A DNA stretch of 42,878 nt from Nitratiruptor sp. (lineage in GTDB: Bacteria; Campylobacterota; Campylobacteria; Campylobacterales; Nitratiruptoraceae), in the NCBI GenBank assembly GCA_015494595.1, contig WGAX01000183.1:1-42878 (forward strand). The letters run 5' to 3'. Positions 3,901 through 19,729 of this stretch are shown piece by piece. How positions within the stretch are numbered: the stretch's first letter is position 1; each line of letters starts with the position of its first letter. Below the pieces are notes generated by a model. The model did not search any database and was not told where the DNA came from. It worked only from the letters and a program-made list of their open reading frames with translations. Made by a program: the position numbers and the translations under genes.

Positions 3901-4604
3901 GATTTGCTAGGTGTAGAGAGCTTTTTGGCAAAGATTTTGAAAAAATCTCTCAAGCAAAAGTATTAATTTTAGGAGTTGGAGGTGTGGGAAGTTTTACCCT
4001 TGATTGTCTGTATAGAAGCGGAATAAAAGATATTACTATTGTCGATTTTGACAGCTATGACATAACCAACCAAAATCGCCAAATCGGAAGCGAGCATATA
4101 GGTAAAATTAAAGTCGATGTACTTGCAAATCTCTATAAAGGAATAAAAAAGATTAATACAAAAATCGATAATGAGTGGGTAGAGCATTTTGATTTTTCGC
4201 CTTATGATATAGTTATTGATGCTATAGATGATATGGGGGCAAAAGTAGCCATTGCCAAAAAGTGCGCCCCTAAACTTATCTCCTCAATGGGGAGTGCAAG
4301 AAAGTGTGATCCTACAAAGATAGAGGCAGCCTCTATCTGGAAAACCTATGGTGATCCCTTTGCTAAAAAGCTTCGCTACGAGCTAAAAAAGAGCGGTTTT
4401 AAGGGAGATTTTTTGGCAATTTTCAGCCCAGAAGCGCCAAGATGCAGCACAAAGGGAAGCTTTGTGGGAGTAACAGGAAGCTTTGGTCTAGCTATATGCG
4501 CAAAAGCGATTGAAAGAGTAGTTAATGCAAGAAGTAGCCATTGTCATACCTCTATACAACGAAGAGAAAGTAGTACGCCAGACTCTCCTGGAGCTAAGAG
4601 ATAA
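3897..4604 (+). CDS. tcdA: ThiF/MoeB-family tRNA threonylcarbamoyladenosine dehydratase
   Basis: GVGGVG, TNQNRQ, IDAID, SSMGSA, DPFAKKLRYEL and GSFVGVTGSFG. The tail overlaps the next gene by 80 nt. Confidence 0.85.
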   Translation: MRFARCRELFGKDFEKISQAKVLILGVGGVGSFTLDCLYRSGIKDITIVDFDSYDITNQNRQIGSEHIGKIKVDVLANLYKGIKKINTKIDNEWVEHFDFSPYDIVIDAIDDMGAKVAIAKKCAPKLISSMGSARKCDPTKIEAASIWKTYGDPFAKKLRYELKKSGFKGDFLAIFSPEAPRCSTKGSFVGVTGSFGLAICAKAIERVVNARSSHCHTSIQRRESSTPDSPGAKR

Positions 4605-5205
4605 GCGTCCAGATGATGCTATCATTGTGATAGATGATGGCTCAAGAGATAGAAGCTACGAGCAAGCCTGTATACAAGGCGTCTATCTTCTCTCTCATCT
4701 TGTCAATCTTGGGCAAGGAGCAGCCCTACAAACAGGTATAGAGTTTGCCAGAAAACTTGGATGCAAATATGTAGTTACATTTGATGCAGATGGACAGCAC
4801 TGCGCAGATGATATAGAAAAGTTCATAGAGATTTTAAGAAGAGATGAAGCAGATATAGTCCTTTGCTCTAGATTTTTAGGCTCTGCCCTCAATATTCCTC
4901 CTTGTAGAAGATACTTCTTGCGCTTTGCAGCTCTTATTGAGCAGATTTTAACAGGACTCAAACTTACAGATGTCCATAATGGCTTTAGAGCAATTAATAT
5001 AGCTAAATTTCCAACATTTGCCATTAGCCAAAACCGTATGTCTCACGCTTCAGAAATCATTGATCTCATAAAACATCTTAAAATGCGCTATGTAGAAAAG
5101 CCCTGTACCATTCGCTACAGTACATATTCACTTCGTAAAGGGCAATCAATGATTAATAGTATTAATATACTTTTTGAGTTTATTTTAGGAAAGGCTATTA
5201 AATGA
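4525..5205 (+). CDS. GT2 glycosyltransferase, DPM1/GacI/PpgS-like polyprenyl-phosphate sugar synthase
   Basis: IVIPLYNE, IDDGSRD, NLGQGAALQTG, TFDADGQH and TDVHNGFRA. It is followed directly by a DUF2304 gene. Confidence 0.9.
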   Translation: MQEVAIVIPLYNEEKVVRQTLLELRDKRPDDAIIVIDDGSRDRSYEQACIQGVYLLSHLVNLGQGAALQTGIEFARKLGCKYVVTFDADGQHCADDIEKFIEILRRDEADIVLCSRFLGSALNIPPCRRYFLRFAALIEQILTGLKLTDVHNGFRAINIAKFPTFAISQNRMSHASEIIDLIKHLKMRYVEKPCTIRYSTYSLRKGQSMINSINILFEFILGKAIK

Positions 5206-5531
5206 TAGTAATCAAAATCTTTTTGATTCTCATCTTAAGCATTGTCTTTTTACTTCTAGCACTCTCTAGCAGATTTCGCACCTACCAGCGCCTTATTATT
5301 GTGGCATTTTACATTTTATTATCATTTTTAATCATTTTTCCTCAAAAAGCAGATAAAATCGCAGCCTTTTTTGGAATTGGGAGAGGCGTAGACCTTATTA
5401 TCTATCTATCTATTGCCATTTTATCTCTTATCGTAGCTATTTTGTATGCCAAAGTTAAAATGAATGAGCGAGCTCTTACAAAAATTATACGCACACTTGC
5501 TATAATGCAAGCCAAAAAGTGTCATGAATAG
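5202..5531 (+). CDS. DUF2304 family small membrane protein (GacJ/Rv3632-like partner of GT2)
   Basis: 109 aa, 3 TM, FGIGRGVDLIIY motif and C-terminal LTKIIRTLAI. Overlaps the GT2 stop. Confidence 0.85.
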   Translation: MIVIKIFLILILSIVFLLLALSSRFRTYQRLIIVAFYILLSFLIIFPQKADKIAAFFGIGRGVDLIIYLSIAILSLIVAILYAKVKMNERALTKIIRTLAIMQAKKCHE

Positions 5532-6408
5532 AGTCTACTCAAAAGAGCTGATTCAGAGCTGGAAACAGGCTCTTATTGACACCTATGGATTTGAAGAGTA
5601 TATGGACTTTTTAATACAACCCACATTTACTAACACCTATCTTACATATCTACCCCATATCAACTATACTGACAGAGAAAGAGATAACATAGCAGATCTG
5701 TTAGAGCTTGCAAAAGAGAGCAATTACCAAATACGCATCCTCAATTTTGCCTACAAAGATTTCAAAGAGTTTGATACTGTTACACTGCGTCTCAATGTGA
5801 AAGGGTGCAAAAATGCCCAAGATCTTAAAAAGATGTACAAAAAATTGGCTAAGAGATCTATTAACAGAGATAAAAGAAAATATCATCTTACCATTAAAAG
5901 AAATAACGATATTGAGCTCTTTTATGCTATTATCTCTTCAATCTATAAAGATCACGGTACACCAATTTTTCCAAAAGAGCTTTTAGTAAACCTCAAAAAG
6001 TATATGGAGCACAATCTCAATTTTCATATCTTCTATGATAAAAAGGAGCCAATTGGAGGCTTTATGAGCTTTTTTGATAATAAAATTTTAACATTTCAGA
6101 TGGGAGGCCTCCTAAAACAGTATAAAAAGATCTACTCCGGTTACTACTTGCAACATCTTCTTATTATAGAGAATATGGAAAATTTTGATATAGAAGTTGT
6201 CGATTTTGGACGATCTCCCTATAATGGAGGCACCTACTTTTTCAAAACCCGTTTTGGAGCAAAACCTGTAAAAATCGATATTCTCACAAATAGAACAAAA
6301 AATATCTATCAAACCTACTCTTTTGCCTCTGCAATATGGAAACGATTACCAAAATCTTTAGCAAATACCATTGGACCAAAAATTACCAAGTATTTAGTGG
6401 ATTTATGA
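5524..6408 (+). CDS. FemAB-related GNAT-fold protein (similar to the PEP-CTERM/XrtA-associated family)
   Basis: HGTPIFPK, VDFGRS..GGTYFFKTRFGAKP and IWKRLPKSLANTIGPKI resemble FemAB-like proteins of EPS loci. Confidence 0.75.
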   Translation: MNRVYSKELIQSWKQALIDTYGFEEYMDFLIQPTFTNTYLTYLPHINYTDRERDNIADLLELAKESNYQIRILNFAYKDFKEFDTVTLRLNVKGCKNAQDLKKMYKKLAKRSINRDKRKYHLTIKRNNDIELFYAIISSIYKDHGTPIFPKELLVNLKKYMEHNLNFHIFYDKKEPIGGFMSFFDNKILTFQMGGLLKQYKKIYSGYYLQHLLIIENMENFDIEVVDFGRSPYNGGTYFFKTRFGAKPVKIDILTNRTKNIYQTYSFASAIWKRLPKSLANTIGPKITKYLVDL

Positions 6409-7337
6409 AAACATTTCTAAAACTCTCTATCACCATTTTTATCATCTATTGGCTTTTTAAAGATGTAGATTTCTCTCTCCTACTGAAAACTTTGCAAAAT
6501 CTTCACCCCTTTGGCATCTGTGCAACCTTGTTAGCAGTTTTTTTGAGCGATCTTCTTATATCTTTTCGCTGGTACTATTTAAGCCAATATACACACCCCT
6601 TTGTAAGCACTCTTGAAGCCACTATGCTAGCCTTTTTTCTTAATATCTTTGCACCTGCTAAATTAGGGGATTTGGTAAAAATCTACTATCTGCATAAAAA
6701 AGATAGTAAAGACCCAAAACACTCCTCCTCTCTTTTTTTAATAGAGCGATTTTTTGATGTAATCCTCCTTGCATTGCTGATTACTTTTAGTACCCTTTTT
6801 ATTTTTCCCAATACCATTGCGCTTTTTCTTAGTCTCTCTCTTTTGGCTCTTATTGGATGCACAATTTTTATACTTCTCCATAGAAAAATACTTCATACAC
6901 TCCTCTTTTTCGTAAAAATAAAAAAGATTCGGCGCCTACTTTTTCATATTGCTCAAGCAATCCAAAGCAACCTGACTCCCAAAAGAGCACTCACTACATT
7001 TTTCTTAACCCTTGCAGTATGGATGGGATATTACCTCAATAATTTTATATTTTTTCTTTTTACCACCGATTTTGATCTCAATTTTCAGCAGATCTTCACC
7101 GCTTCCACCCTCGCTTTTGCCGTCTCTGCCATTCCTTTAACACCAGGAGGTATTGGCACATTTCAAGCTGCTTTTATCCTTACGCTTGGATGGTATGGAA
7201 TCGGTAAAGAGGAGGCACTGGGAGCATCAACTGTTTTACAGCTACTCTACATTTTACCCGCTACTCTTTTTAGTATCTATCTTTTTATAACCAAAGACTT
7301 TTTAGGAAAAAAAGATGTATCTACCAAATATATATAA
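6405..7337 (+). CDS. lysylphosphatidylglycerol-synthase TM domain / flippase-like protein (UPF0104)
   Basis: FRW, NIFAPAKLGDLVK, ERFFD and IPLTPGGIGTFQ motifs, about 8 TM. Start moved to ATG 6405, which overlaps the upstream stop. Confidence 0.85.
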   Translation: MKTFLKLSITIFIIYWLFKDVDFSLLLKTLQNLHPFGICATLLAVFLSDLLISFRWYYLSQYTHPFVSTLEATMLAFFLNIFAPAKLGDLVKIYYLHKKDSKDPKHSSSLFLIERFFDVILLALLITFSTLFIFPNTIALFLSLSLLALIGCTIFILLHRKILHTLLFFVKIKKIRRLLFHIAQAIQSNLTPKRALTTFFLTLAVWMGYYLNNFIFFLFTTDFDLNFQQIFTASTLAFAVSAIPLTPGGIGTFQAAFILTLGWYGIGKEEALGASTVLQLLYILPATLFSIYLFITKDFLGKKDVSTKYI

Positions 7338-8130
7338 AACCTCCCCTTTGTGGCTTACAATAGATATTGAGGAGTTGGAGGATGCAAATTTTGGTATTAC
7401 ACCCAAAAAGAGGCTCCACATTGATTACGAAGCTCTTATAAAAAAGTGGGATAGACTCTGCAAAAAGCATCAACTTCTCTCTACTGCATTTGTATTAGGA
7501 AAATTTGCCAAAAAGTATCCCCATCTCATACAATATCTAGCCAATGCAGGACACGAAATAGCTTGCCACGGATTAAGGCATAAACTCATCTATACTATGC
7601 CGTTTGATACCTGGTATGAAGAGACAAAAGAGGCAAAAAAGATTTTAGAAGATATTACAGGAAGCAAGATAGAGGGATTTAGAGCCCCAAGCTGGAGTAT
7701 GCCTTTTCAAAAACGCTACTACGAGGCACTAGCAGAGTTAGGCTTTGCCTACTCATCCTCCTATTTTCCCTTTAAAACCTATATGTATGGTAATAGCATA
7801 GATCGTAAATTCCCTTTTATGATCACCACTACATCTGGTACTTTTATAGAGATTCCTATCCCTAAACACATTATCCCTTTTAGTGGTGGATTTTATATGC
7901 GCACCCTCCCCTTTTTCCTTATTCGCTACCTTTTTCATAATCTAATGAAGAGAGGAGTTAAACCGATAATCTACACACACCCCTATGAGCTTTTACCAAA
8001 CCTTTTTGGTAGATTCAGAAAGGATGTGCAATTCAATCTGCCCTATATTTTAACTTTTATAGCACTAGAGGATAGCTATAAGAGATTTGATACAATAGTG
8101 CAACTCTTTGGAAGGAAAGAGAATGTATAA
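7315..8130 (+). CDS. CE4 polysaccharide deacetylase (DUF3473/XrtA-associated type)
   Basis: LTIDIEE, HEIACHGLRH, GFRAPSWS, SGGFYMR and YTHPYE. No signal peptide is visible. Confidence 0.9.
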   Translation: MYLPNIYKTSPLWLTIDIEELEDANFGITPKKRLHIDYEALIKKWDRLCKKHQLLSTAFVLGKFAKKYPHLIQYLANAGHEIACHGLRHKLIYTMPFDTWYEETKEAKKILEDITGSKIEGFRAPSWSMPFQKRYYEALAELGFAYSSSYFPFKTYMYGNSIDRKFPFMITTTSGTFIEIPIPKHIIPFSGGFYMRTLPFFLIRYLFHNLMKRGVKPIIYTHPYELLPNLFGRFRKDVQFNLPYILTFIALEDSYKRFDTIVQLFGRKENV

Positions 8131-9115
8131 AAACGCAACTTTTGCGCTTCTGCTTCTACCTTTACTATTTCTAGGATGCGCAAAAACTGCAGAGCAAAAA
8201 GAGATTAAAAAGAGCAAAGAGGGTATTACTATCCGTTTGGAGGGTACAGTATATCCCAGTAAAAAAGAGGCAATTATTGCTCCAATGACTGGACGCATCA
8301 AACATATTTTTGTGAAACCTGGTGATAGAGTTGCAAAAAATAGCCTTATTGCAAGTTTTGAGACAATTGTTACAGAGTATGATGTACAAAAGACCGTACA
8401 GGAGTTGGAATACCTCAAAAAGCTCAAAAAATTTTTGCAAGCTAGTAAAAAAGAGAATATGAGCTTGGCCCTTGTCAATATAGCTAGAGAAAAGTTGGAG
8501 AGGCTCTCAAAACTACGGGCAAAAGGATATGCTGATACATTGGAGTATGATAATGCAAAAGCACTTTATGCTTCAAGTCTACATAACAGGTATAGTGAAA
8601 AAGAATCAAAAACAGAGAAACTGCACTTTTTGGATGAGAGAATCAATGTTACAAAAAATGAGCTTTTGAAACTGCAACACACCTTGGCACTCAGTCAAAT
8701 TAGAAGTAATCTTAGCGGTTTTGTAGCCGATATTGATACGCAGGTAGGAGAGTATGTAGCTAAAGGCACCAAATTGGGGCATATTGTAAATTTGGACAAG
8801 GTTATTGTAAAAGCAGGGGTAGCACCAGGACTGCTCCCCTTTATTAAAAAAGGTAAAAAGGTTAAAATAGACTTTATTACAACACCCCCTTACAAAGTGG
8901 AATCTACAATCTCAAGAGTTGTTATGGTAGTAGATCCAGATTTTAAAAGAATGACTGCAGAGATTGAAATTCCAAATAAAAATTACCTTCTTCAAGAGGG
9001 AACAAAGGCGCTTGTAACAGTCTATTTAACAAAAGAGGAGCAGCAATTTATCAAAGAGAACTTTTTAGATCGAGCTAATCAAACTCTCTATGAGGTAAAA
9101 TCTTTCAACCGATAA
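8123..9115 (+). CDS. HlyD/RND-type periplasmic adaptor (membrane fusion) lipoprotein
   Basis: Lipobox LFLGC. Lipoyl halves APMTGRIKHIFVKPGDRV and IRSNLSGFV..VGEYVAKG flank a coiled coil. ATG at 8123 follows GGAAGG. Confidence 0.88.
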   Translation: MYKNATFALLLLPLLFLGCAKTAEQKEIKKSKEGITIRLEGTVYPSKKEAIIAPMTGRIKHIFVKPGDRVAKNSLIASFETIVTEYDVQKTVQELEYLKKLKKFLQASKKENMSLALVNIAREKLERLSKLRAKGYADTLEYDNAKALYASSLHNRYSEKESKTEKLHFLDERINVTKNELLKLQHTLALSQIRSNLSGFVADIDTQVGEYVAKGTKLGHIVNLDKVIVKAGVAPGLLPFIKKGKKVKIDFITTPPYKVESTISRVVMVVDPDFKRMTAEIEIPNKNYLLQEGTKALVTVYLTKEEQQFIKENFLDRANQTLYEVKSFNR

Positions 9116-9117
9116 GA

Positions 9118-10572
9118 CTATTTTGCTTCCATAATCTGAAGCTTTTTATAAATTTTCTCAGCACTATCCAAAAATGCCTGAATAATAGAGGCCTCTACAA
9201 GTCTATTTTTTTCCTTTGCTATTTTTTCCACCGCCTCTTGATGAGAGAAAGGTTTTCTATATGCTCTTGGGCTTGTAAGCCCTATATAAAACTCTGCTAA
9301 TGCAACAATTTGTGCCAACAAAGGAATATCTTTACCCTTTAAGCCATACGGGTAGCCTCCACCATCATAACGCTCATGATGATACTTAATAATTGGCGCT
9401 ATAGGATAGACATTATTAATAGGCTCCACGAGTACTGAGCCTACAATAGGATGATAACGAATGAGATCCAACTCCTTTTTCTCAATCTTTTTACTATCAA
9501 GAAAATTTTCAATTTTGCCTATCATTCCTATATCATGCAATCTTGCCCCTATTCTAAGCACATCAATATGTCTCTCATCCAAAAAGATATTTTTCGCAAT
9601 TTCCACACTAACAAGCTCTACTTTTCTTGCGTGATCTTTAAAATAGGGACTTTGCAACTCTAAAACTCTATTGGCAAGAAGCAAAAAGTTAAGGTAGTTT
9701 GCCACCATTTTGCTGCTTGCATCCATATTCTCAAAATAGCCTCCTGCAAGATCCAAAAAGGCACCAATTTCTGCAATCTGCTTGGTATCAAGAGGAGCAT
9801 TTGTATACACTTCTAAGATATAGGGTGTATTTCTAATATAGAAGGCTTTTTTAAATTTATGTCTTTTAGGATATTTAAATACATCGACTTTTGTAGGATT
9901 TTCTCTATTTTTTAAGATCATCCCTGTAGCATTTGTCGTCTTTAATAAAAGAGAGCCCACAAACTTCAAAAATGTCTGGGTTCTATATTGAAAACTCATA
10001 ACATTTGTCAAAATATTTTTTGAGCTATCCATAATAGTACTAAGATGTATCTCTTTGTGCAGCTCGTTAATACGCAAATAGTAAGAGAGCAACATCATTA
10101 AAAATCCCTCAATCTCCTCTATAGCCAACTCCTTTTTGCTATAAATCCTCAAAAGGGCCTTTTCATCACAAGATTCAAAAGAGTAGACAGTATACTCCTC
10201 TTTTTTACTCTGTTTTTTAATATCTTTTTTATATACTCTACTCTCTATCTCTTCGCTCTCATCTTTCCCCTGTGCTTCTAAGACATAAATATCTCCCCTT
10301 CGCAAATAGATTGCTATATTATCTGCTCCTATATATCTTTGGTATTCACTTAAAAAAGCCTCCACATCCCCAATTTTACGCAAGGTAGCCAACTTTTTAA
10401 AAGCTCTATTTTGATTTCTAAAGCGAAATTTTAAGATTGCATTATCTCTAAAAAGCTTAATAGAGAGCAGGATAAATAGAATAGCTACTATTAAAAAAAC
10501 ATACCAGAAATTGAGCGCAATAAAAAAGATCACATCATCTACTCGCTCAGCAAAATTAATACTTCCTAACAC
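9118..10572 (-). CDS. membrane-anchored HD-GYP domain protein (partly degenerate)
   Basis: N-terminal TM. C-terminal LHDIG, HP, HHERYDGGGYPYGLKG and RAYRK motifs. Confidence 0.85.
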   Translation of the reverse strand: MLGSINFAERVDDVIFFIALNFWYVFLIVAILFILLSIKLFRDNAILKFRFRNQNRAFKKLATLRKIGDVEAFLSEYQRYIGADNIAIYLRRGDIYVLEAQGKDESEEIESRVYKKDIKKQSKKEEYTVYSFESCDEKALLRIYSKKELAIEEIEGFLMMLLSYYLRINELHKEIHLSTIMDSSKNILTNVMSFQYRTQTFLKFVGSLLLKTTNATGMILKNRENPTKVDVFKYPKRHKFKKAFYIRNTPYILEVYTNAPLDTKQIAEIGAFLDLAGGYFENMDASSKMVANYLNFLLLANRVLELQSPYFKDHARKVELVSVEIAKNIFLDERHIDVLRIGARLHDIGMIGKIENFLDSKKIEKKELDLIRYHPIVGSVLVEPINNVYPIAPIIKYHHERYDGGGYPYGLKGKDIPLLAQIVALAEFYIGLTSPRAYRKPFSHQEAVEKIAKEKNRLVEASIIQAFLDSAEKIYKKLQIMEAK

Positions 10573-12745
10573 GATTTTTCCTTTCTAAAAGTTTTATATA
10601 TTGACTATTATCGATCTCATAGACCGTTAATAGCTGACTTTTTGCAAAAATTCTAATATTATTATGTTTTGCACTATAAAGAGCTACCCACTCTTTCAAA
10701 TTTGTCTCTACATCCCTTCTCCAGCGATAAAACCACTCATCCTTTCCTTTATATGTGTGGGGAATGTCCTCCACAAAAATATAGACCTTTTTTGTAGGAA
10801 TTGGCAAATATCGATCTAAAGGATTATATTTTGTTACAAACTCATTAGCATTAATCATATACCCTTTACCAAGTACCTTAGAATACTCCTGTACATAAGA
10901 GACAACCGTCCAACTTAAAGGTGTGTTTTGCTTCACTATTTGATAAAGATAGTAAGGAATTGCAGAGTATTGCACTCCATTAATATACTTCTTAAACTGC
11001 TCTGTATCTTTATAGTGAGGAATAAAAAAGAGGGAGATAAATAAAGTTATATAAAGCAAAAAGAGAAAAAGAGGTTTAGCATACCTTCTTAACACAAAAC
11101 GCAAAGGCAACCACACAAAAAGTTTTACATAACAAGCTGCAATTATAGTAATGGATAAAAAGAGATACTCCGCCCCTCTAGCAGGATGTACAAGCTTTGG
11201 TAAACCTAAATTTTGTGCAAAATAGACTACAAAAAAACCCAATGGAATCAGTAAAAAACTACTAAAATAAAATCCCTTTTTATATAAGCGTGCCATAATA
11301 AAAAAAATAAGCGCAGAAAGAAGCAACAAAAGGTGAATAGAAGTAAGATGAGAAATTGTAACCTCTTCTATTCCTGCTGTAACTATCTCTTTAATAGCCT
11401 GCTTTGTACCAAACAGCTTGTCTAAAAAAGGAGCAGCTGCACCAAAATCTTGAGGAATACCATATTTTATAACAGAAAGCATCCAGCCATTTCCAAAAAT
11501 GGCTGCAATCACTATGCCAAGAAGCCCTCTTGCAAAAAGACTCCAACTCAATTTTAAACTAATAAAAGCATTCACTGCTATAAGCATACTAGGCACAATT
11601 AGTGCAATTGCCCCACCTCCGTGAAAAATAAAGACAAGCATCAATGTCAAAGTATAGTTATAAAGATATCTACTTTTTCCTTTATCTAAAGCTTTAATAA
11701 GATAAAAAAGATTAAGCAGATACATTGTAGAAGAAAATTCATAAGCCATACCGCTAAAATAGCGTAAATATGGCCTCATAGCTACATCTTCTAGCATCAA
11801 TTTTAATTCAGGATCAATAAAGAACTTTTGAGGAATAGTATAAAGAGTAAAATGCCACCAAGAGAGAATTGAAGGATTATTAAAGGTAAGAATCGGTGCG
11901 GCAATAGAGCTATTAAGAGGAGAGCCTATAAAAAAAGAGCCAAAAAGCAGTAGGATAAACAGAGCAAGAAGAGAGGAGATAGTAAATCGTTTTATAACAA
12001 AATAGACACCAAAAAGTAAAAAGGTAATGAGCAAAAGAGGATAGATATTAAACAACACTATAGAATCTATATGGGTAAAAACTTTTAAAATAAAAACAAA
12101 TACCGATATACCATAAAAATCAGCACCTACTGTCTTATTATCTGCATATAAGATATTACGCTCTAAGTTTGCTACCCACTCAAAAAATTGACTATTATCG
12201 GGCAAAGGATTTGCCATAGAGATAAAACACCTATAACCCAAAATATAGATTAAGTGAGTAAAAATAAAAAAAATAAGGACTTTTTTAAAAAATTGATAGT
12301 AATTGAGATGACGAAAATAGAGATAGAGCTCCTCTACTTTTTGCTTTTTATATTGAGCGATAATCTCTCTATAATTATCAAAAAAATGAAAAATAGCTAC
12401 CATTATAGCTATACGCTTAGCCAAAAGATAAGCTTTTACACTTCTTTTCTCATAAAATTTCACAAAAAAGAGCTTTGCCCCAATTAATGAGGCAATAAAT
12501 GTAAAAGTATTAAAGAGTTTTATAAAAACTAAAAGAGGTACTACTAGCTCAATAAAAACCAACATATATAAAATATTGGAGATAATATTTTCTATTCCAG
12601 CCCCTGCATAGTGCTGCGGAAATATGCGTCTTGGTAAAAAGATAAATAGAATGTATGCTACACTAAAAAGAACAACAATACCATGAAGATTAATGGAGAA
12701 AACATTATATAGGATAGAGTAATCTATAAACCTCTCTCTTTGCAA
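10556..12745 (-). CDS. large polytopic membrane protein, probable GT-C-fold glycosyltransferase/polymer-modifying enzyme
   Basis: More than 13 hydrophobic segments, an acidic first external loop (NPLPDNSQFFEW...ADFYG) and a soluble C-terminal domain. The coding status is clear; the function is inferred. Confidence 0.55.
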   Translation of the reverse strand: MQRERFIDYSILYNVFSINLHGIVVLFSVAYILFIFLPRRIFPQHYAGAGIENIISNILYMLVFIELVVPLLVFIKLFNTFTFIASLIGAKLFFVKFYEKRSVKAYLLAKRIAIMVAIFHFFDNYREIIAQYKKQKVEELYLYFRHLNYYQFFKKVLIFFIFTHLIYILGYRCFISMANPLPDNSQFFEWVANLERNILYADNKTVGADFYGISVFVFILKVFTHIDSIVLFNIYPLLLITFLLFGVYFVIKRFTISSLLALFILLLFGSFFIGSPLNSSIAAPILTFNNPSILSWWHFTLYTIPQKFFIDPELKLMLEDVAMRPYLRYFSGMAYEFSSTMYLLNLFYLIKALDKGKSRYLYNYTLTLMLVFIFHGGGAIALIVPSMLIAVNAFISLKLSWSLFARGLLGIVIAAIFGNGWMLSVIKYGIPQDFGAAAPFLDKLFGTKQAIKEIVTAGIEEVTISHLTSIHLLLLLSALIFFIMARLYKKGFYFSSFLLIPLGFFVVYFAQNLGLPKLVHPARGAEYLFLSITIIAACYVKLFVWLPLRFVLRRYAKPLFLFLLYITLFISLFFIPHYKDTEQFKKYINGVQYSAIPYYLYQIVKQNTPLSWTVVSYVQEYSKVLGKGYMINANEFVTKYNPLDRYLPIPTKKVYIFVEDIPHTYKGKDEWFYRWRRDVETNLKEWVALYSAKHNNIRIFAKSQLLTVYEIDNSQYIKLLERKNRVRKY

Positions 12746-12753
12746 AAATGCCC

Positions 12754-13656
12754 TTAACCTTTAATGAGATACAGTAGAAGCTTCCATCGTAAAAGCTCTC
12801 CATCATAATAGACATCACTATACTCAAAAGGAAGAAGTGAGACAATATATCCTCGACCATAAGGCAGCAGAGTTACTAGAGGACGACCTCTTGTATCCAC
12901 AATCAATTTTTTCCCTTCTATAAGAGGATAGATCTCCATAAAATTGTAAATAACTAGTTTTAATCTTTTTATACCTTTAATAAGAGAGGCTTTTTGATCA
13001 ATAATAAAACTTTTTGTTGAGGGCATATAATTGATAAGATCAATTTTTTTTGCCTGAAAAAGATAAGGAGTGACAGGTTTGTGCAAAAACCGCATACCCC
13101 CTACTGCTCTGTAAAGATTTTTGCGTATCCTCCAGGCGGCTATCTCCCCTTCCCTATTAAAAATATCATACCGAGTAGAAAAGAGGCCAAACTCTACCCA
13201 AAGCACTCCCCCCTGTTTAACCCAGGAGCGCAAAATCTCCTGCTCTTTTGCTGAGATATTTAAGGAGTAAGCAATATTTTTAAAAAGATCTCGACTTACT
13301 CTTTTATACTCTTTTATCCATAAAGGTCGAATATAGATAAAATCAAGAGATTGAGGCTCTTTTTGCAAACGCCAAAAATTTACATCTTCAATACTTTTAG
13401 CATTATAAGTAAGATTAATACTTTGATAAAATTTTGGATTGAATTTTCCTTTAACTTCAAACTCCCTCTCATCAATAAAAGGAAATTTATGAAAAATATC
13501 ACTCCCCTTCTGGACTGATACAAGATCTTCCACGGGCTGATTATAGATAGTAAGTGTAACTTCGTTTGTCAACTCCTTTTCTATACTATTTTGACTACTG
13601 GCACATCCACTTAAAAAAAGAAGGCTTAGTAAAAGTGATATGAAATATCTCATCAT
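12754..13656 (-). CDS. lipoprotein of unknown function (possible class-I GATase-like fold)
   Basis: Lipobox FLSGC. LRSWVKQGGVLWV and YGRGYIVSL resemble DUF4350/ThuA-like folds. Confidence 0.65.
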   Translation of the reverse strand: MMRYFISLLLSLLFLSGCASSQNSIEKELTNEVTLTIYNQPVEDLVSVQKGSDIFHKFPFIDEREFEVKGKFNPKFYQSINLTYNAKSIEDVNFWRLQKEPQSLDFIYIRPLWIKEYKRVSRDLFKNIAYSLNISAKEQEILRSWVKQGGVLWVEFGLFSTRYDIFNREGEIAAWRIRKNLYRAVGGMRFLHKPVTPYLFQAKKIDLINYMPSTKSFIIDQKASLIKGIKRLKLVIYNFMEIYPLIEGKKLIVDTRGRPLVTLLPYGRGYIVSLLPFEYSDVYYDGELLRWKLLLYLIKG

Positions 13657-13662
13657 CTTCCT

Positions 13663-15216
13663 TTAAAATGCTGCATAGTAGTAATAATCCAAATCTTTAA
13701 ACACCTTTTTCATATAAAGAAATGTTATAAGCCAAAAAGTTATACTACCTACTAACAATCCTACTACAGCAAGATATTGATCAACTATATTGGCTAAAAT
13801 AACTCCTACTGTAAAATCTATAGCTACAGCAATAACTATAGCCTGCACCACAACCTTTTGCCTAGAAAAAGAGAAAAGAATTAATGTATTCATCAACCCA
13901 CTTGTCAAAAAAGCATAAGCTATGGCACTTGCTATAAATACATATTCTGATATTTCAGTAAAAGGCAAACGATCAGCACTTACATAGTGACTCAGTGTCT
14001 TGACAATGGTATATATAACTATTATCGTTATAAATGCAAATATTGTAAAGAGTCTATTTACCCTTTTATAAAATTTCTCAAAATAGCTATTAAACTCCTT
14101 GACTTGCCAAAGAGAGTAATGCACAACCTTGTCATTGAGCATATATAAAAACTCATATACCACAACTTCCAATACTCCCATTAACAATACAAGTACTATT
14201 AAAGCAAGATCTGTACCTACCTCATACTCCACATCAAACCAAATAAAAAACCCCCGATCAAGCGCATAAACATTCCACTCAATTAACTTATCCAATACCA
14301 AAAAAAGAAAATAGAATGTGCCATATAAAAAAAAGGGTAAAAGAGTGTAAACAAGCATAGATGTTCTTGGTAGAAGCTCCCCTTCTGAAGGAGTAGTTTT
14401 TCTTAAGTGATAGAGCTTCCTAAACCCAAAATAGATAATAATAAGATCTAATAGTGCCAATGCTAAAAATTGTGCCCAGGGAAAACCTATACCTACAATA
14501 TAGTGGATAGGCACAACAATCACTACCCCTAAAAGAAAAAAGAGTGCAATTTTGCCATACTCTTCAAATACATAATAGACACTGATACTCAAAAATAGTA
14601 CAGAAAGCAGAAAAAAGCTTAAAATAAATGGAGGGAAAAAATTGTGCTCAAAAACTTTAAATAGAGAATTAAAAAGAAAGAAAAAGAGTGTTAATAGGAC
14701 AATTTTTGCAAAACTCGCTAAATAGAGTACCTTAATACTTTTTGCTGCTAAAACATACTCATGCATCTTTAGATAGTAGAGACCTTTTCGGCCAATAATT
14801 TGTGCAGGTCCCCCCGTTACAATCATTGCTAAAAATGTCCCAAAGGCTATAATTGTAGCCGTTGCCTCATCAATCATAATATTTGACCATAAGGCAAACC
14901 CAAAAATAATCGTAGCAATAATCTGAATAAAAATAGGAATAGCAAAAGCTAAACCTCGAAGATAGTTACGAATAATTCGCTGTTTTAAGGGTGGTAGTTT
15001 CTGCTGCACAAGGGCAATGCTTGGATATGTCTTTATCTCTTTATACTTAAAGAGCTCCTTTGCCAATGCAAATACATCATCAAAACCATACTCCTCTTTC
15101 GCATCAATATCGCGTATACCATATACTTCCAGCAAAGCGGCCACTTCCCAAAAATCAAGAGGCTCTCCTCTATCTTTAGTAATAGCCAAATAGAGCTCTT
15201 CCAACCTTTTACTCAT
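13663..15216 (-). CDS. PelG-like polysaccharide synthesis/export membrane protein
   Basis: About 12 TM, 4-nt overlap with pelF. The N-terminal EVAALLEVYGI...YGFDDVFALAKEL segment resembles the PelF-adjacent membrane proteins I recall from actinobacterial pel-like loci. Confidence 0.65.
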   Translation of the reverse strand: MSKRLEELYLAITKDRGEPLDFWEVAALLEVYGIRDIDAKEEYGFDDVFALAKELFKYKEIKTYPSIALVQQKLPPLKQRIIRNYLRGLAFAIPIFIQIIATIIFGFALWSNIMIDEATATIIAFGTFLAMIVTGGPAQIIGRKGLYYLKMHEYVLAAKSIKVLYLASFAKIVLLTLFFFLFNSLFKVFEHNFFPPFILSFFLLSVLFLSISVYYVFEEYGKIALFFLLGVVIVVPIHYIVGIGFPWAQFLALALLDLIIIYFGFRKLYHLRKTTPSEGELLPRTSMLVYTLLPFFLYGTFYFLFLVLDKLIEWNVYALDRGFFIWFDVEYEVGTDLALIVLVLLMGVLEVVVYEFLYMLNDKVVHYSLWQVKEFNSYFEKFYKRVNRLFTIFAFITIIVIYTIVKTLSHYVSADRLPFTEISEYVFIASAIAYAFLTSGLMNTLILFSFSRQKVVVQAIVIAVAIDFTVGVILANIVDQYLAVVGLLVGSITFWLITFLYMKKVFKDLDYYYYAAF

Positions 15217-16706
15217 AGGTGTACTGCCGGCAAAGAGTTTAAAGATGATTCAAAAAGTTTCCTATACACACTCCAGTAATTATTGACCATATCTTCAGTT
15301 GTAAAACCTGCTACAATCACTTCCCGTGCCTTTTTACCAAGCTCTTTGGTAAATGCAGGATTTTGTAAAAGATAGATAACATACTTTGCAAACTCCTCAT
15401 ACGCTTTAGGCTTAATAATAAAACCATATCCCTCCAGTACCTCTTTTGTTCCTCCCACATCACTTGAAACCACCACTTTTTCACACGCCATTGCCTCAAT
15501 GACTGCAAAAGGAAAAGCCTCGGATATGCTCGTAAGCATCACCACATCACCCTCATTATATGCCATAGCCGGATTAGAAGTAGCTCCCAAAAAGGAGAAG
15601 TTATTTTCTAATTGCAAACTCTTTACAAGCTCTTTACATTGCAAAGCATACTCCTTATCTACCTCAGGACCATAAAACTTAAAGTGTACATCTGGAATTT
15701 GCTTAGCCACCAGAGCACAACAGCGTATATAGGTCTCCACATCTTTGAGAGGATCCAAACGAGCTACCATCACAACAGTTGGTCTATCATCTCGCTGTAC
15801 ATCCATCTTTTTAAACTTGAGTACATCAATACCATTATAGATAGTCTCAATTTTACTCTCTTTTACTCCCCATTGAAGCTCCCAGCGCTTATTATAATCA
15901 CATACAGGAGAGATCAGATCGGCAAAATGGTAGTTGAGTTTAGAGACTGTTGTAATAAGTCCCAACAGAAACTCTTTTGTCTTAAGAGGCACCTTTCTTC
16001 TAGAGGCAAAAAGATACTGCTCTCTAATATAGATTCCATGCTCTGTTAATAAAAACCGACTTTTATGTTTCTTCTTAGCAATAATACAAGGCAGACCACA
16101 AAAAGCTGCTGCAGAGGAGTGATAAATATCTGCTTTGGGAAGCTCAGGTAAAAGAGTGATAAAGAAGCGAAAAATATAGCGCAGTCCCTCAATCATATCA
16201 AAAACTGTAGGCAAATCCTGCTCTTTTACTCGATAGTGCTCCATTAAATAGCCTTTATAAATCTCCCATACCTCCTGACTTCTAAAGATCTCATAATAAT
16301 CATACTCTAAAAAGTAGTCATAAAACTCTACCAAAGCATCACCCAACCCTTCTAAATCATCCTCTTTTCTATAGATATGATTCAAAAGTTTTATAAGAAT
16401 AGGCTCCAATCTTGCTATATCTCTTTTTTGCAATGTATTAATTTTAGCTTGATAGATTCTAGCAAACTCAATATTACGAATATACTCCACCGGTTCTTCT
16501 GTTCCCCAAAGAGGGACATTAATAATATCCACAACATTAGCCGGTATAGGAAACTTTGCCTGCATATAAGGATGCATCATAATTGGCATCAAAATAAAAT
16601 CGATATTTTTAAGCTCTCTAATAAGAAGATCTGCCCAGGTACTCACTCCTCCCGTTGCATAGGGGTAGGTACCTTCACCCGTCCATACAACTTTAATTCT
16701 GGCCAT
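15213..16706 (-). CDS. pelF: GT4 glycosyltransferase PelF (DUF3492 + GT-B)
   Basis: EGTYPYATGGVSTW, LTEHGIYIRE, IYNGID, ARLDPLKD and TSISEAFPFAVIEAMA are PelF signatures. Confidence 0.9.
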   Translation of the reverse strand: MARIKVVWTGEGTYPYATGGVSTWADLLIRELKNIDFILMPIMMHPYMQAKFPIPANVVDIINVPLWGTEEPVEYIRNIEFARIYQAKINTLQKRDIARLEPILIKLLNHIYRKEDDLEGLGDALVEFYDYFLEYDYYEIFRSQEVWEIYKGYLMEHYRVKEQDLPTVFDMIEGLRYIFRFFITLLPELPKADIYHSSAAAFCGLPCIIAKKKHKSRFLLTEHGIYIREQYLFASRRKVPLKTKEFLLGLITTVSKLNYHFADLISPVCDYNKRWELQWGVKESKIETIYNGIDVLKFKKMDVQRDDRPTVVMVARLDPLKDVETYIRCCALVAKQIPDVHFKFYGPEVDKEYALQCKELVKSLQLENNFSFLGATSNPAMAYNEGDVVMLTSISEAFPFAVIEAMACEKVVVSSDVGGTKEVLEGYGFIIKPKAYEEFAKYVIYLLQNPAFTKELGKKAREVIVAGFTTEDMVNNYWSVYRKLFESSLNSLPAVHL

Positions 16707-18366
16707 CTGCTATCTGTTGTCCTATAAGAATAAGAAGTTGCGCAGAGTTGCGAATCATTGCAGTTTTTATGGTAGCTTTCTCTTCAATATAGTGAAGATA
16801 ATTTTTTAGTGCATCATTAAAATCACGATAAACAGAAAGACCCTCTATATAGCGTTTGCGTACAATTTGCAGCTTTTTATACATCAAAGCGATCTGCTGT
16901 TGAACAATATCTAAATGTTTTTGTAGCCGTTTATTCTCATTATAGAGTTTATAGATCTGCTGTGCACTCTTTTTAATCGTATCAAGCAGCCTATTTTTCT
17001 GTTTCAAAGCTTCTATTTTTACCTTTTGTTTATGCAGTTTACATGCATCTCCTCCTATTAAAGGGATCTTTACACTAACAGCTCCACTATAATTAAGCCC
17101 CTTTGCTTTTTGATGGGGAATAAGAGAAAAATCCTTTTTATACTCATAAAAGAGAGCTCCATGAAAATCGATAATAGGTAGCATCGATTTTTCACTACTT
17201 ACTACCTTTGCTTTTTTCAATCCATACAAAAGACGCATCCTTCGTATAGTGCTGTTATGCAAATACGCCTCTTTATAAAGTGTTGGCAAATCCTTTGTCT
17301 CCAATGCAAAACCAATATTCTCCAACTCTACTCTTTTAGATATATTTAGCTCTATACTACTACGCAAAAGGTGATCACTATAGGTATAGTCATAAATCTT
17401 TTTTAATAAATCTTTTCGTAGCTCCAATAGATCATTTTTTGCATCTATCACATCTACTCTCGAAGCAACTCCTACCCTACCACGCTCTTTAATAAGATTA
17501 TAAAAACGCTTCTGATTGAAATACTCTTTTTCATAAATACTTTTTAGCTCCCATGCTAAAAGAGCTTCACTATAGATTGCGACTCCAAGTAAAGAGAGCT
17601 GCTCTTTTGCATTCAAAAAATCGACTTTTGCTAGCTGCTCTTTTAAATAACGTATACGAGCTACAAGGGGATAATCTCTGTCAAAAAGGCGTTTATCAAT
17701 ATTAATACCAGCATTAACTGTCAACTCTTTATCAGTAATTAAAGAGTAGTCTATAAATTTTGCATACCGTGCGGCAGCGTTGAAATAGATTTGCCACTCA
17801 TATCTACTCTGCTCTAAAATTGCCTCTAATCTCTTAATTTTTGCATCATAACTTTTACTCTTTAAACCATAATCTTTTTGTAATAATCTTTTTAAATACT
17901 CTTGTAAAGTAAGCTTGTAGACATGAGAAGACTTTTTATGAGAATGCTGCATAACATTTTGGATAAAACTATCTTCTGTTTGCCTAAGAGGTGCGGTTTG
18001 AAATTGAGCTACTTTGTTTTTCTTTATTACTTTTACTTTTGCTTTTACTTTTTTCTTTATTGGCTTATGATCTTGAGAAATCTTTGCCGTAGAAGAGCAT
18101 TTTATATTATTACAGCGCTTAATGTAAGCATCTGTATGAAGTTTTTTGGCCTTGGCAAAAGCTGATTTTAATTCCTTTTTATTCAAATAGGGGCCAGAGA
18201 TAAAGTGATAATACCCCCTCTTTTTACAAATAACTCCCTTTGGAAACATAGCCAAAAAAGTCTTATCTTCATTTTTATAGACTCTTTTTTGCATAGCATG
18301 CTGAATACACCAACCACCTAATAGAGGATAAACAAGTATAATTAAACCAACTATAACCCTACCCAT
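16693..18366 (-). CDS. TolC-family outer membrane efflux protein with N-terminal SPOR-like domain
   Basis: Signal peptide, SPOR-like segment (YHFISGPYLNKKELKSAFAKAKKLHTDAYI), Lys-rich linker, then two OEP repeats (LTLQEYL, VGVASRVDVIDAK, LPIIDF, VKIPL, YIEGLS). Start at ATG 18366 or TTG 18372. Confidence 0.85.
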   Translation of the reverse strand: MGRVIVGLIILVYPLLGGWCIQHAMQKRVYKNEDKTFLAMFPKGVICKKRGYYHFISGPYLNKKELKSAFAKAKKLHTDAYIKRCNNIKCSSTAKISQDHKPIKKKVKAKVKVIKKNKVAQFQTAPLRQTEDSFIQNVMQHSHKKSSHVYKLTLQEYLKRLLQKDYGLKSKSYDAKIKRLEAILEQSRYEWQIYFNAAARYAKFIDYSLITDKELTVNAGINIDKRLFDRDYPLVARIRYLKEQLAKVDFLNAKEQLSLLGVAIYSEALLAWELKSIYEKEYFNQKRFYNLIKERGRVGVASRVDVIDAKNDLLELRKDLLKKIYDYTYSDHLLRSSIELNISKRVELENIGFALETKDLPTLYKEAYLHNSTIRRMRLLYGLKKAKVVSSEKSMLPIIDFHGALFYEYKKDFSLIPHQKAKGLNYSGAVSVKIPLIGGDACKLHKQKVKIEALKQKNRLLDTIKKSAQQIYKLYNENKRLQKHLDIVQQQIALMYKKLQIVRKRYIEGLSVYRDFNDALKNYLHYIEEKATIKTAMIRNSAQLLILIGQQIADGQN

Positions 18367-18466: not shown

Positions 18467-18553
<87 letters not shown>

Positions 18554-18566
18554 GTTTTGAAGCAAA

Positions 18567-18575
18567 AGTATAGCA
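18567..18575 (-). promoter_or_regulatory. extended -10 promoter for tRNA-Leu
   Basis: TGCTATACT 13 nt upstream of the mature tRNA. Confidence 0.7.
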
Positions 18576-18576
18576 T

Positions 18577-18607
18577 AAAATCTTCCCGAAGGCAACCCTT
18601 CGGAAAG
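18577..18607 (-). terminator. Rho-independent terminator of atpE
   Basis: Minus-strand hairpin CTTTCCGAAGG-GTTG-CCTTCGGGAAG followed by ATTTT, immediately after the atpE stop. Confidence 0.7.
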
Positions 18608-18611
18608 TAAA

Positions 18612-18917
18612 TTATCCTAAGAATGGATTTGCATAAAGTGCAATAAGTGCAATTACAAGCGTATAAATAACTTGCGCTTCAATCATCGCAAGTGCAATAA
18701 ACATTGTAGTCATAAGCTTACCGCCAAGTCCCGGGTTTCTTGCAGTTCCTGCAATTGTAGCAGCTGCAGTATGTCCCATACCGATACCACCACCTGCTGC
18801 AGCAATACCCAAACCAACACCAGCAGCCAATACGCTGTAAGCTTGAATCATACTCTCACCATCACCAGCAAATGCAAAGCCAGCAAATGCTACCAACAAA
18901 AGAAGCAACTTTTTCAT
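18612..18917 (-). CDS. atpE: F0F1 ATP synthase subunit c
   Basis: GxGxG helix, ARNP loop, catalytic Glu in MIEAQVIY and AGGAGG Shine-Dalgarno. Confidence 0.97.
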   Translation of the reverse strand: MKKLLLLLVAFAGFAFAGDGESMIQAYSVLAAGVGLGIAAAGGGIGMGHTAAATIAGTARNPGLGGKLMTTMFIALAMIEAQVIYTLVIALIALYANPFLG

Positions 18918-18994: not shown

Positions 18995-19729
18995 CTAAAA
19001 ATTTTTAAAAATTATTGAAGTTTGAGTTTTTTTTTGCTGAATAAATTCCAATAATTGAGACATATAGGAGGAGATATTCTCCCATGGGTTCGCACCGTCT
19101 TGCTCAGTTACATAAACATATTGATATGTTGCTATATCACTTTTTACTCTTTGAAAATCATCAACTGCATGTAGCAAAATCGCACTCTTTGCTATTGTAC
19201 TTTTATTGGGTATGCTTTTTGAATGCTCTCGCACTACAATAATATCTGCTAGCCTTTCAAATCTCTTATCAATAAAAGTCCCCGGATTAAATACCACAAT
19301 TGAAAAGCTCTTTTTGATATACTTAGTTACATCTTCATAATACTTTAATGATCGTAAATCTGTACTAACTTCATCTATAAAAATACCATGAATACCCCAC
19401 CTTTTATACTCCCTCCAAGCATCAATGCGCCGCTTTAAAGATGTGAGATTTCTTCGAGCATAAGAGCTATAGACATAACCAAGAACAGTTATATTGGCAT
19501 CCTCAAGTGCTTTAATTGCAGAGGCAAAATTGGATTCTACCCTTGCAAAATCGCCATTGGCAGGATTAATAATGACCAAAAATTTAATAGTAGGATAGGC
19601 TCTTTTATATGCAATAAGCTTTTGGATTTTTGGATCGTTGTATGTTGGAAAATGGTAAAAAGGGATTAAAACCCCTTCCATTCCATATAGTGCTATGCTA
19701 AGCAAAAGTCCAAAAAAGATCTTACCCAT
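18995..19729 (-). CDS. spherulation-specific family 4 protein (GH135, Sph3-like alpha-1,4-GalNAc hydrolase), secreted
   Basis: Signal peptide plus LIPFYHFP, IINPANG, VLGYVYSSYARR, GIFIDE, VFNPG and ADIIVVRE, matching Spherulin-4. Confidence 0.85.
   Translation of the reverse strand: MGKIFFGLLLSIALYGMEGVLIPFYHFPTYNDPKIQKLIAYKRAYPTIKFLVIINPANGDFARVESNFASAIKALEDANITVLGYVYSSYARRNLTSLKRRIDAWREYKRWGIHGIFIDEVSTDLRSLKYYEDVTKYIKKSFSIVVFNPGTFIDKRFERLADIIVVREHSKSIPNKSTIAKSAILLHAVDDFQRVKSDIATYQYVYVTEQDGANPWENISSYMSQLLEFIQQKKTQTSIIFKNF

Follow-up and report, generated by a model that had tools for sequence, protein, structure and literature searches.

We examined a 42,878-nucleotide stretch of DNA from Nitratiruptor sp. 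(the window, which is contig C183 of genome G000, 1.54 Mb and 88% complete) and found in it a Pel-like polysaccharide locus that carries its own TolC-family outer-membrane factor and its own periplasmic adaptor. The sequence comparisons support the view that these two proteins are dedicated, co-inherited parts of the locus and that no pump tracks with them. We consider it somewhat better than an even bet that PelF makes a Pel-like chain, that the PelG-like protein carries it across the inner membrane and that an adaptor ring on a PelG-containing complex opens the dedicated TolC. This mechanism rests on gene content, conservation, folds and co-occurrence, and the contacts, the polymer and the route are our proposal.

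The core of the locus

The locus is formed by two convergent arms, the plus arm from 4525 to 9115 and the minus arm from 18366 to 9118. It extends beyond the interval 8123-18366 of the initial annotation and begins at 4525 with a GT2 gene. The gene order is GT2, DUF2304, FemAB-like, flippase-like, deacetylase and adaptor in the plus arm, and tolC, pelF, the 517-amino-acid gene, the 300-amino-acid gene, the 729-amino-acid gene and the HD-GYP gene in the minus arm. The intergenic distances among all 12 genes are between -73 and +8 nucleotides and therefore there is no space for a further gene. The four genes of the putative conduit are the following:

16693..18366, minus strand: dedicated TolC-family outer-membrane factor, 557 amino acids, with an N-terminal SPOR-like domain (OEP match, E 1.8e-22)
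15213..16706, minus strand: PelF, GT4 glycosyltransferase, 497 amino acids (NF038011, 185.5 bits against a cut-off of 100)
13663..15216, minus strand: PelG-like MOP-fold inner-membrane transporter, 517 amino acids, with a soluble N-terminal domain (assigned from PF16933 in its relatives and from its predicted fold)
8123..9115, plus strand: periplasmic adaptor (membrane-fusion) lipoprotein, 330 amino acids (HlyD_D23, E 7.7e-18)

The tolC gene starts with an ATG at 18366, ends at 16693 and overlaps the start of pelF (16706) by 14 nucleotides, and the adaptor gene closes the plus arm, 2 nucleotides away from the convergent HD-GYP gene. The initial annotation, which had placed tolC at the head of the pelF operon and a HlyD-type lipoprotein at the end of the opposite arm, was thus right on both counts.

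The model of the 517-amino-acid protein (pLDDT 89.4) matches MATE, MurJ and Wzx folds (E 3e-5, TM-score 0.53-0.60), which identifies a PelG-like transporter of the MOP fold and the best candidate for adaptor docking. PF16933 was matched by 41 of its 68 aligned relatives, not by the window copy. The PelG-like family is wider than the locus clade, with 366 representatives at E <= 1e-30 and a support of 1.0 for the locus clade. The protein P0420 (1056 amino acids) has a PelG-like domain at residues 540-1054 and is possibly a PelF-PelG fusion. Regarding the product, we infer from the PelF and hydrolase families only that it would be an alpha-1,4-linked polymer of N-acetylgalactosamine and galactosamine, as in Pel.

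Conservation and co-inheritance of TolC and the adaptor

A genome scan returned 60 related loci, of which four distant ones without an adjacent pelF were set aside, and the 56 kept are labelled as Campylobacterales, Desulfurellales, Thermodesulfovibrionales and Desulfuromonadales. The region before pelF was available for 53 loci: tolC is its immediate upstream neighbour in 51 of them, and in the remaining two (L050 and L078) it lies farther upstream in the same direction; pelF directly precedes pelG in all 53. The adjacency of tolC and pelF is therefore not a matter of chance. The locus-carrying genomes also encode separate efflux TolCs.

The adaptor gene shifts and flips its position, and it falls inside the available locus DNA in 20 of the 56 loci. 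Of the 36 core genomes searched in full, 27 gave one copy each; the four distant genomes gave none. Taken together, 46 of 55 locus genomes have a member of this adaptor subfamily, always in single copy where the whole genome was searched, and in 8 of the 9 genomes without a match the locus is interrupted by a contig end. The adaptor gene adjoins another locus gene in 24 of the 27 genomes of the whole-genome set. It stands directly before tolC-pelF-pelG in L067 and L069, the same single run is present in the distant high-GC loci L133 and L134, and it is divergent from tolC in L068, L071, L072 and L078. The L068 sequence is labelled as a Pacearchaeota archaeon and is probably misbinned: its TolC/lipoprotein locus is full and clusters among Nitrospirota-like sequences.

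In the phylum sample, the adaptor and the PelG-like gene were both present in the same 4 of 301 genomes and both missing from the other 297. The profiles used contain sequences from or near the four positives and kin are not independent, so that the 297 absences are the informative part. In the Nitrospirota sample the PelG-like gene was found in 1 of 201 genomes (the centre genome) and the adaptor profile matched in 2 of 201, the second match (G584) being a 434-amino-acid frame at 123 bits. The trees of adaptor, TolC and PelG have their main clades in common. A mirror-tree test gave correlations among all the locus genes (Spearman 0.59-0.90), which indicates co-inheritance and names no partner.

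Features of TolC and of the adaptor

The TolC domain PF02321 was present in all 38 TolC relatives examined, SPOR in 5 of them and AMIN in one; a profile built from the N-terminal block of these relatives matched residues 21-91 of the window TolC at 80 bits.

The adaptor consists of hairpin, lipoyl and beta-barrel domains without a transmembrane anchor. Its lipobox is FLGC, with the lipid-bearing cysteine at position 19, and this cysteine is invariant among its relatives. It belongs to a subfamily of its own, whose members score 182-466 bits against at most 72 bits for non-members. In the window adaptor a tail of 28 residues stands where RND and MacB adaptors hold most of the membrane-proximal domain, and in all 56 adaptor sequences the tail after the beta-barrel has 25-38 residues versus 70 in MacA. 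The membrane-proximal domain is absent in adaptors whose transporters have no periplasmic domains (PMC8277102, section 66) and essential for RND and MacB systems (PMC8277102). The short tail is thus suggestive of a partner without periplasmic domains.

Search for a pump partner

No ABC, RND or MFS transporter was found among the 36 window proteins scanned, in agreement with the initial annotation. Neither did we find the type I pattern of an ABC exporter with a transmembrane-anchored adaptor: the locus has no ABC gene and the adaptor has the invariant lipobox cysteine. In the related loci we screened 81 of the 91 unassigned open reading frames of at least 230 amino acids together with representatives of the shared families, a screen that a lone small ABC ATPase could escape, and the sole efflux pump found in their flanks belongs to an OEP-adaptor-RND operon, complete in itself, next to L046.

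Regarding pumps elsewhere in the genomes, the same five RND systems are present in the locus-positive G054 and G074 and in the locus-negative G072 and G080, all of them complete genomes of one genus. Four of these systems come with an adaptor of their own. The fifth, which has no adjacent adaptor, occurs in the two locus-negative genomes, and a search of 16 locus genomes at E 1e-60 did not find it in 10 of them. There is one MacB-type periplasmic domain in G074, and it is of the ~403-amino-acid type that is common to all five genomes. The inventories of MacB-type and ABC-membrane proteins contained nothing exclusive to locus-positive genomes, MFS pumps being outside these inventories. In the genome of the window, an RND gene without an adjacent adaptor (G000:C24:5007-8075) and an unlinked short adaptor-like gene (G000:C62:2934-3743) may be partners.

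Search for other exits

The PelB barrel (PF24604) was found in none of five locus genomes, three of which are 99-100% complete; the same search matched 18 of 121 genomes of the control class. PelD (PF16963) was also found in none of the five, in a search in which no positive control rang, and in the locus the HD-GYP protein is present instead. Among the locus reading frames there is no TPR protein or GH114-fusion protein that would correspond to PelE (transmembrane plus TPR) or PelA (hydrolase-deacetylase fusion). Elsewhere in the genomes GH114 occurs only as stand-alone frames of 280-320 amino acids.

A possible different exit is seen in sister loci, many of which also contain pelF, a long pelG, a hydrolase gene and genes resembling those for GT-C and HD-GYP. 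We scanned metagenomes with sister sequences and classified the best 80 of 230 confirmed loci: 19 had TolC and/or the adaptor, 19 had DUF2194 with a C-terminal barrel-like domain and none had both, while 5 had DUF2194 only and 37, many of them short, had neither. A swapped exit module would give this pattern. TPR matches were found in the sister proteins of L144 and L155. The sister fusion of ~1,300 amino acids (DUF2194, a helical/TPR part and a barrel-like C-terminus) is seen at L156:16114-19998, L155:7791-11771 and L197:14538-18446, and in a split version at L144:11569-15356; it is possibly a modifying enzyme and a porin in one chain. In the sister loci L135, L144, L155, L160 and L193, genes for a SpoIIE-type phosphatase, a STAS protein and an anti-sigma-like protein stand beside the HD-GYP gene, which suggests partner-switching control.

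The other genes of the locus

The remaining genes would make and attach a side-chain sugar, connect the locus to cyclic di-GMP (c-di-GMP) and to peptidoglycan, and degrade polymer:

4525..5205, plus strand: GT2, PpgS/GacI-like polyprenyl-phosphate N-acetylhexosamine synthase, 226 amino acids (PF00535; 205.6 bits against NF058614, PpgS, whose cut-off is 370)
5202..5531, plus strand: DUF2304 small membrane protein, GacJ/Rv3632-like putative GT2 activator (PF10066, E 1.5e-15; role after 10.1101/180810)
5524..6408, plus strand: FemAB/GNAT-like acyl or aminoacyl transferase (TIGR03019, E 3.9e-24, below its cut-off)
6336..7337, plus strand: LPG_synthase_TM flippase-like membrane protein (PF03706, E 6.4e-44; TIGR00374 above its cut-off)
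7315..8130, plus strand: polysaccharide deacetylase with DUF3473 (PF01522, PF11959)
10556..12745, minus strand: predicted GT-C-fold membrane glycosyltransferase, 729 amino acids (model pLDDT 91.8; Foldseek and VIA-align)
12754..13656, minus strand: 300-amino-acid lipoprotein with an invariant Cys18 (weak likeness to the N-terminal, ThuA/GATase-type part of DUF2194)
9118..10572, minus strand: HD-GYP protein with a single transmembrane segment, 484 amino acids (PF13487; alignment to 4mcw, E 1e-32)
18467..18553, minus strand: tRNA-Leu(GAG), which borders the locus (ARAGORN)
18995..19729, minus strand: spherulin-4 secreted hydrolase, which we take to be of the GH135 type (PF12138, E 4.2e-41)

The PpgS-like enzyme is the sole GT2 of the locus and has no transmembrane segment. 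The deacetylase is probably cytoplasmic, because no signal peptide or hydrophobic segment was seen in it.

The model of the 729-amino-acid protein matches STT3, AglB, ArnT and PglB (Z 20.2 to STT3, with a root-mean-square deviation of 7.3 over 453 aligned residues, and Z 18.4 to ArnT), and D183, the conserved acid of the first outer loop, is conserved at at least 90%. On this model the protein is a GT-C glycosyltransferase. As a pump it was ruled out, since transporter folds rank at E > 0.2 only. The initial annotation had offered both this protein and the PelG-like protein as the membrane partner of the adaptor. The MOP fold favours the second; the first is weakened by its GT-C fold and by the distant locus L134, which keeps adaptor, tolC, pelF and pelG and gave no GT-C match in its sequenced stretch. 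The GT-C gene is repeatedly duplicated in L026 (three copies), L044, L045, L078, L116 and L187, and G054 has two tandem copies, each broken into two frames. In L050 (2195-8451) five additional genes are inserted between a GT-C copy and pelF, namely a glutamine amidotransferase domain, a methyltransferase, a formyltransferase, a radical SAM gene and one unassigned, which suggests further modification of the polymer.

In the HD-GYP protein the motifs H, HD, H, HH and GYP are retained, and an invariant glutamate (E427) replaces the metal-ligand aspartate of 4mcw. It may therefore bind rather than cleave c-di-GMP, and is a candidate sensor in the role of PelD. The likeness of the 300-amino-acid lipoprotein to DUF2194 has an hhalign probability of 38% (E 3.3e-4), and no relative of solved structure was found by profile search. 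Its relatives are fused to OmpA in 8 of 34 cases and others to SPOR-like repeats, both of them peptidoglycan-binding; the homologues at L062:7755-10064 and L074:1615-3912 bear four SPOR-like repeats.

The spherulin-4 gene probably belongs to the locus as well. It is separated from tolC in the window by tRNA-Leu and atpE (18467-18917), with a like spacing in L027, L031, L070 and G074, and lies directly upstream of tolC in L053, L062, L063, L075 and L178. A hydrolase gene, of the spherulin-4, GH114 or 468-amino-acid family, was seen in 29 of the 56 loci, and these hydrolases have their own signal peptides. The 468-amino-acid family gave only weak Pfam matches (GHL15 in 5 and GH114 in 2 of 13 members) and nothing useful against the PDB. 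Promoter-like sites were at chance level (59 versus 58 +/- 6.7 expected). The closest named homologues of the window proteins are Nitratiruptor proteins, and the source names include Nitratiruptor tergarcus, Nitratiruptor sp. YY09-18 and Caminibacter pacificus.

Proposed mechanism and alternatives

In the mechanism that we favour, PelF would polymerise an N-acetylhexosamine chain at PelG, and PelG would transfer it through the inner membrane. The lipid-anchored adaptor hexamer, almost without a membrane-proximal domain, would be seated on the PelG-containing complex and would open the TolC trimer tip to tip, so that TolC and adaptor would stand in for PelB and PelC across the periplasm and the outer membrane. 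Export would be driven by chain growth and not by a pump. GT2, DUF2304, deacetylase, FemAB and flippase would make and flip a polyprenyl-phosphate sugar; the GT-C protein, acting at the membrane face, would attach this sugar to the chain. The HD-GYP protein would link the machine to c-di-GMP, the 300-amino-acid lipoprotein and the SPOR domains would anchor it to peptidoglycan, and the hydrolase would remove stray polymer. More tentatively, and at rather less than even chances, PelG-like protein, adaptor and TolC would make a genuine tripartite exporter that has a MOP-fold protein at its base and is powered by polymer growth, the duct and the TPR-barrel porin being swapped as exit modules within a PelF/long-PelG/GT-C/HD-GYP family.

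Several points weigh against this mechanism. A closed duct would impede the access of the GT-C protein and the hydrolase to the chain. An RND operon of the same genome (G000:C50:1312-4751) uses a 263-amino-acid adaptor without a membrane-proximal domain, which is also the nearest match outside the locus subfamily; because of it the short tail does not exclude an RND partner, and the absence of a full membrane-proximal domain from the 56 locus adaptors, with MacA as reference, is not decisive. (The pump gene of this operon is split, as it also is in four complete genomes of the genus.) The distance correlations do not pick out PelG, whose Spearman value with the adaptor (0.70) ranks last among the six adaptor pairs (0.70-0.80). 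The locus of G020 is flanked on both sides and has TolC, and no adaptor was found anywhere in this metagenome-assembled genome. In G033 the adaptor comes after lysS-lolE-lolD-like ABC genes, which we read as housekeeping neighbours. At 70% identity the 19 and 19 metagenome loci collapse to 7 and 10 clusters, at 50% to 3 and 5, and some of the TolC loci duplicate loci of the genome scan. The barrel call in the sister proteins is weak, since PgaA_barrel was matched in 2 of 13 members with a best E of 0.0036, and the sister C-terminal domain matched neither the PelB barrel (probability 2.9%) nor anything in the PDB. Finally, the authors of the mixed-linkage glucan study state that they cannot exclude an indirect role of TolC (PMC13438883).

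We weighed three other explanations, and in the first two of them the glycan is still routed through TolC:

i) Release into the periplasm. The polymer would be released, decorated by the GT-C protein and then caught by an adaptor ring that is not docked on PelG and keeps TolC open. The adaptor is a lipoprotein without a transmembrane anchor, the GT-C protein and the hydrolase require access to the chain, and the PelC lipoprotein ring at the mouth of PelB is a parallel (PMC12141448). All the co-occurrence evidence fits this explanation equally well. Nevertheless, an ungated open TolC would leak, and the conserved short tail and N-terminal segment of the adaptor suggest a binding surface. Adaptors, furthermore, are usually built onto a partner in the inner membrane (PMC8277102, section 66). 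We consider this explanation unlikely, although it is the best of the three.

ii) A lipid-linked route centred on the GT-C protein. PelF would make a lipid-linked glycan, PelG would flip it as MurJ or Wzx do, and the GT-C protein would polymerise it or transfer it to a lipid or protein. The adaptor would sit on the GT-C protein or the HD-GYP anchor, and the glycoconjugate would exit through TolC. We hold this route to be improbable. The MurJ/Wzx/MATE fold of PelG, the oligosaccharyltransferases as the best matches of the GT-C protein, the persistence of GT-C-like genes in sister loci and the adaptor gene that often adjoins the HD-GYP gene are in its favour. However, GT2, DUF2304 and flippase already provide a donor for the GT-C protein, as in GacI/J/K/L, the available DNA of L134 includes the adaptor, tolC, pelF and pelG and gave no match to the GT-C protein, and hydrolases typical of Pel and galactosaminogalactan (GAG) accompany 29 of the 56 loci.

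iii) A borrowed pump. It is marginally less probable again that TolC and adaptor serve an unlinked ABC, RND or MFS pump that exports a protein (hydrolase, adhesin) or a small molecule while the polymer exits otherwise: the C24 RND gene, the C50 operon, the lolE-lolD-like genes of G033 and the MFS pumps outside our inventory leave room for it, whereas the equal RND content of locus-positive and locus-negative genomes, the distribution of the orphan RND system, the commonplace MacB-type domain of G074, the lack of an alternative porin (PelB barrel in 0 of 5 genomes) and the signal peptides of the hydrolases speak against it.

Comparison with known systems and significance

Compared with the Pel system (pelABCDEFG of Pseudomonas aeruginosa and pelDEA_DAFG of Bacillus cereus, in the model of PMC12141448 and 10.1101/768473), the locus has in common a GT4 PelF above the NCBIfam cut-off, a PelG-like gene directly downstream, a membrane protein with a c-di-GMP domain and hydrolases of Pel- and GAG-linked families. 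In contrast, no PelB barrel was found, PelA, PelC, PelD and PelE are not recognisable in the locus (PelC without a model search), PelG is longer and divergent, and there are a dedicated TolC, an adaptor, a GT-C module and an HD-GYP protein.

The XcsAB-TolC system of cyanobacterial cellulose was reportedly described by Maeda et al. in 2018. It is alike in that a synthase, a HlyD-like adaptor and TolC are proposed as the exit, together with a glycanase (PMC8892547, PMC12430437), and unlike in that XcsAB has a processive GT2 synthase and an unlinked tolC, whereas here the tolC gene overlaps pelF and a GT4 enzyme is joined by a MOP-fold protein encoded separately. In the BgsBA-TolC system of the Sinorhizobium meliloti mixed-linkage beta-glucan, a HlyD-type partner and TolC are proposed to form a tripartite exit that c-di-GMP controls, and loss of tolC abolishes the glucan (PMC13438883); again the synthase is a GT2, and the TolC is a shared housekeeping one, unlike the locus-specific paralogue with its SPOR-like domain. 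A HlyD-like adaptor and TolC linked to a polysaccharide synthase, as in the conduits of the XcsAB/BgsBA type, are both found in our locus. A processive membrane GT2 synthase, the inner component of those conduits, is not in the locus, where the only GT2 is the PpgS-like one.

The locus resembles EmrAB-TolC and other tripartite pumps in that its adaptor has hardly any membrane-proximal domain, which would be expected if the transporter has no periplasmic domains, but the candidate partner is a MOP-fold protein instead of an MFS, RND or ABC one, the adaptor is a lipoprotein and the cargo would be a growing polymer. The side-chain module resembles GacI/J/K/L and PpgS/Rv3632 in its GT2, DUF2304, flippase and GT-C (10.1101/180810), and differs in that a deacetylase and a FemAB-like transferase are added and in that it sits in a Pel-like diderm locus.

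The initial annotation had presented the TolC-adaptor pair as a possible polysaccharide conduit. This idea gains from the dedicated and co-inherited parts, the lack of a tracking pump and of a PelB barrel, and the TPR/barrel-like protein that sister loci have instead; its novelty was overstated, because export through TolC and a HlyD-like protein has already been proposed for the GT2 synthases of cyanobacterial cellulose and rhizobial mixed-linkage glucan. We found no description of PelF and PelG paired with a dedicated, operon-encoded TolC in the literature searched, which covered texts outside supplements, figures and subscription papers, and the excerpts available of PMC7112194, 10.1101/768473 and PMC10553843 contain no mention of TolC.

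The locus bears on the question whether TolC conducts polysaccharides directly. In the XcsAB and BgsBA cases the papers themselves say that direct proof of the conduit model is lacking, and the TolC is shared or unlinked. Here, a knockout of the locus tolC would test the conduit without pleiotropy, because this gene is a locus-specific paralogue that stands beside separate efflux TolCs. The transport mechanism of PelG has been described as unknown (PMC12141448). If the proposed mechanism is true, a partner for PelG would be identified, and the MOP-fold proteins would join the inner-membrane components able to use TolC, beyond the ABC, RND and MFS families.

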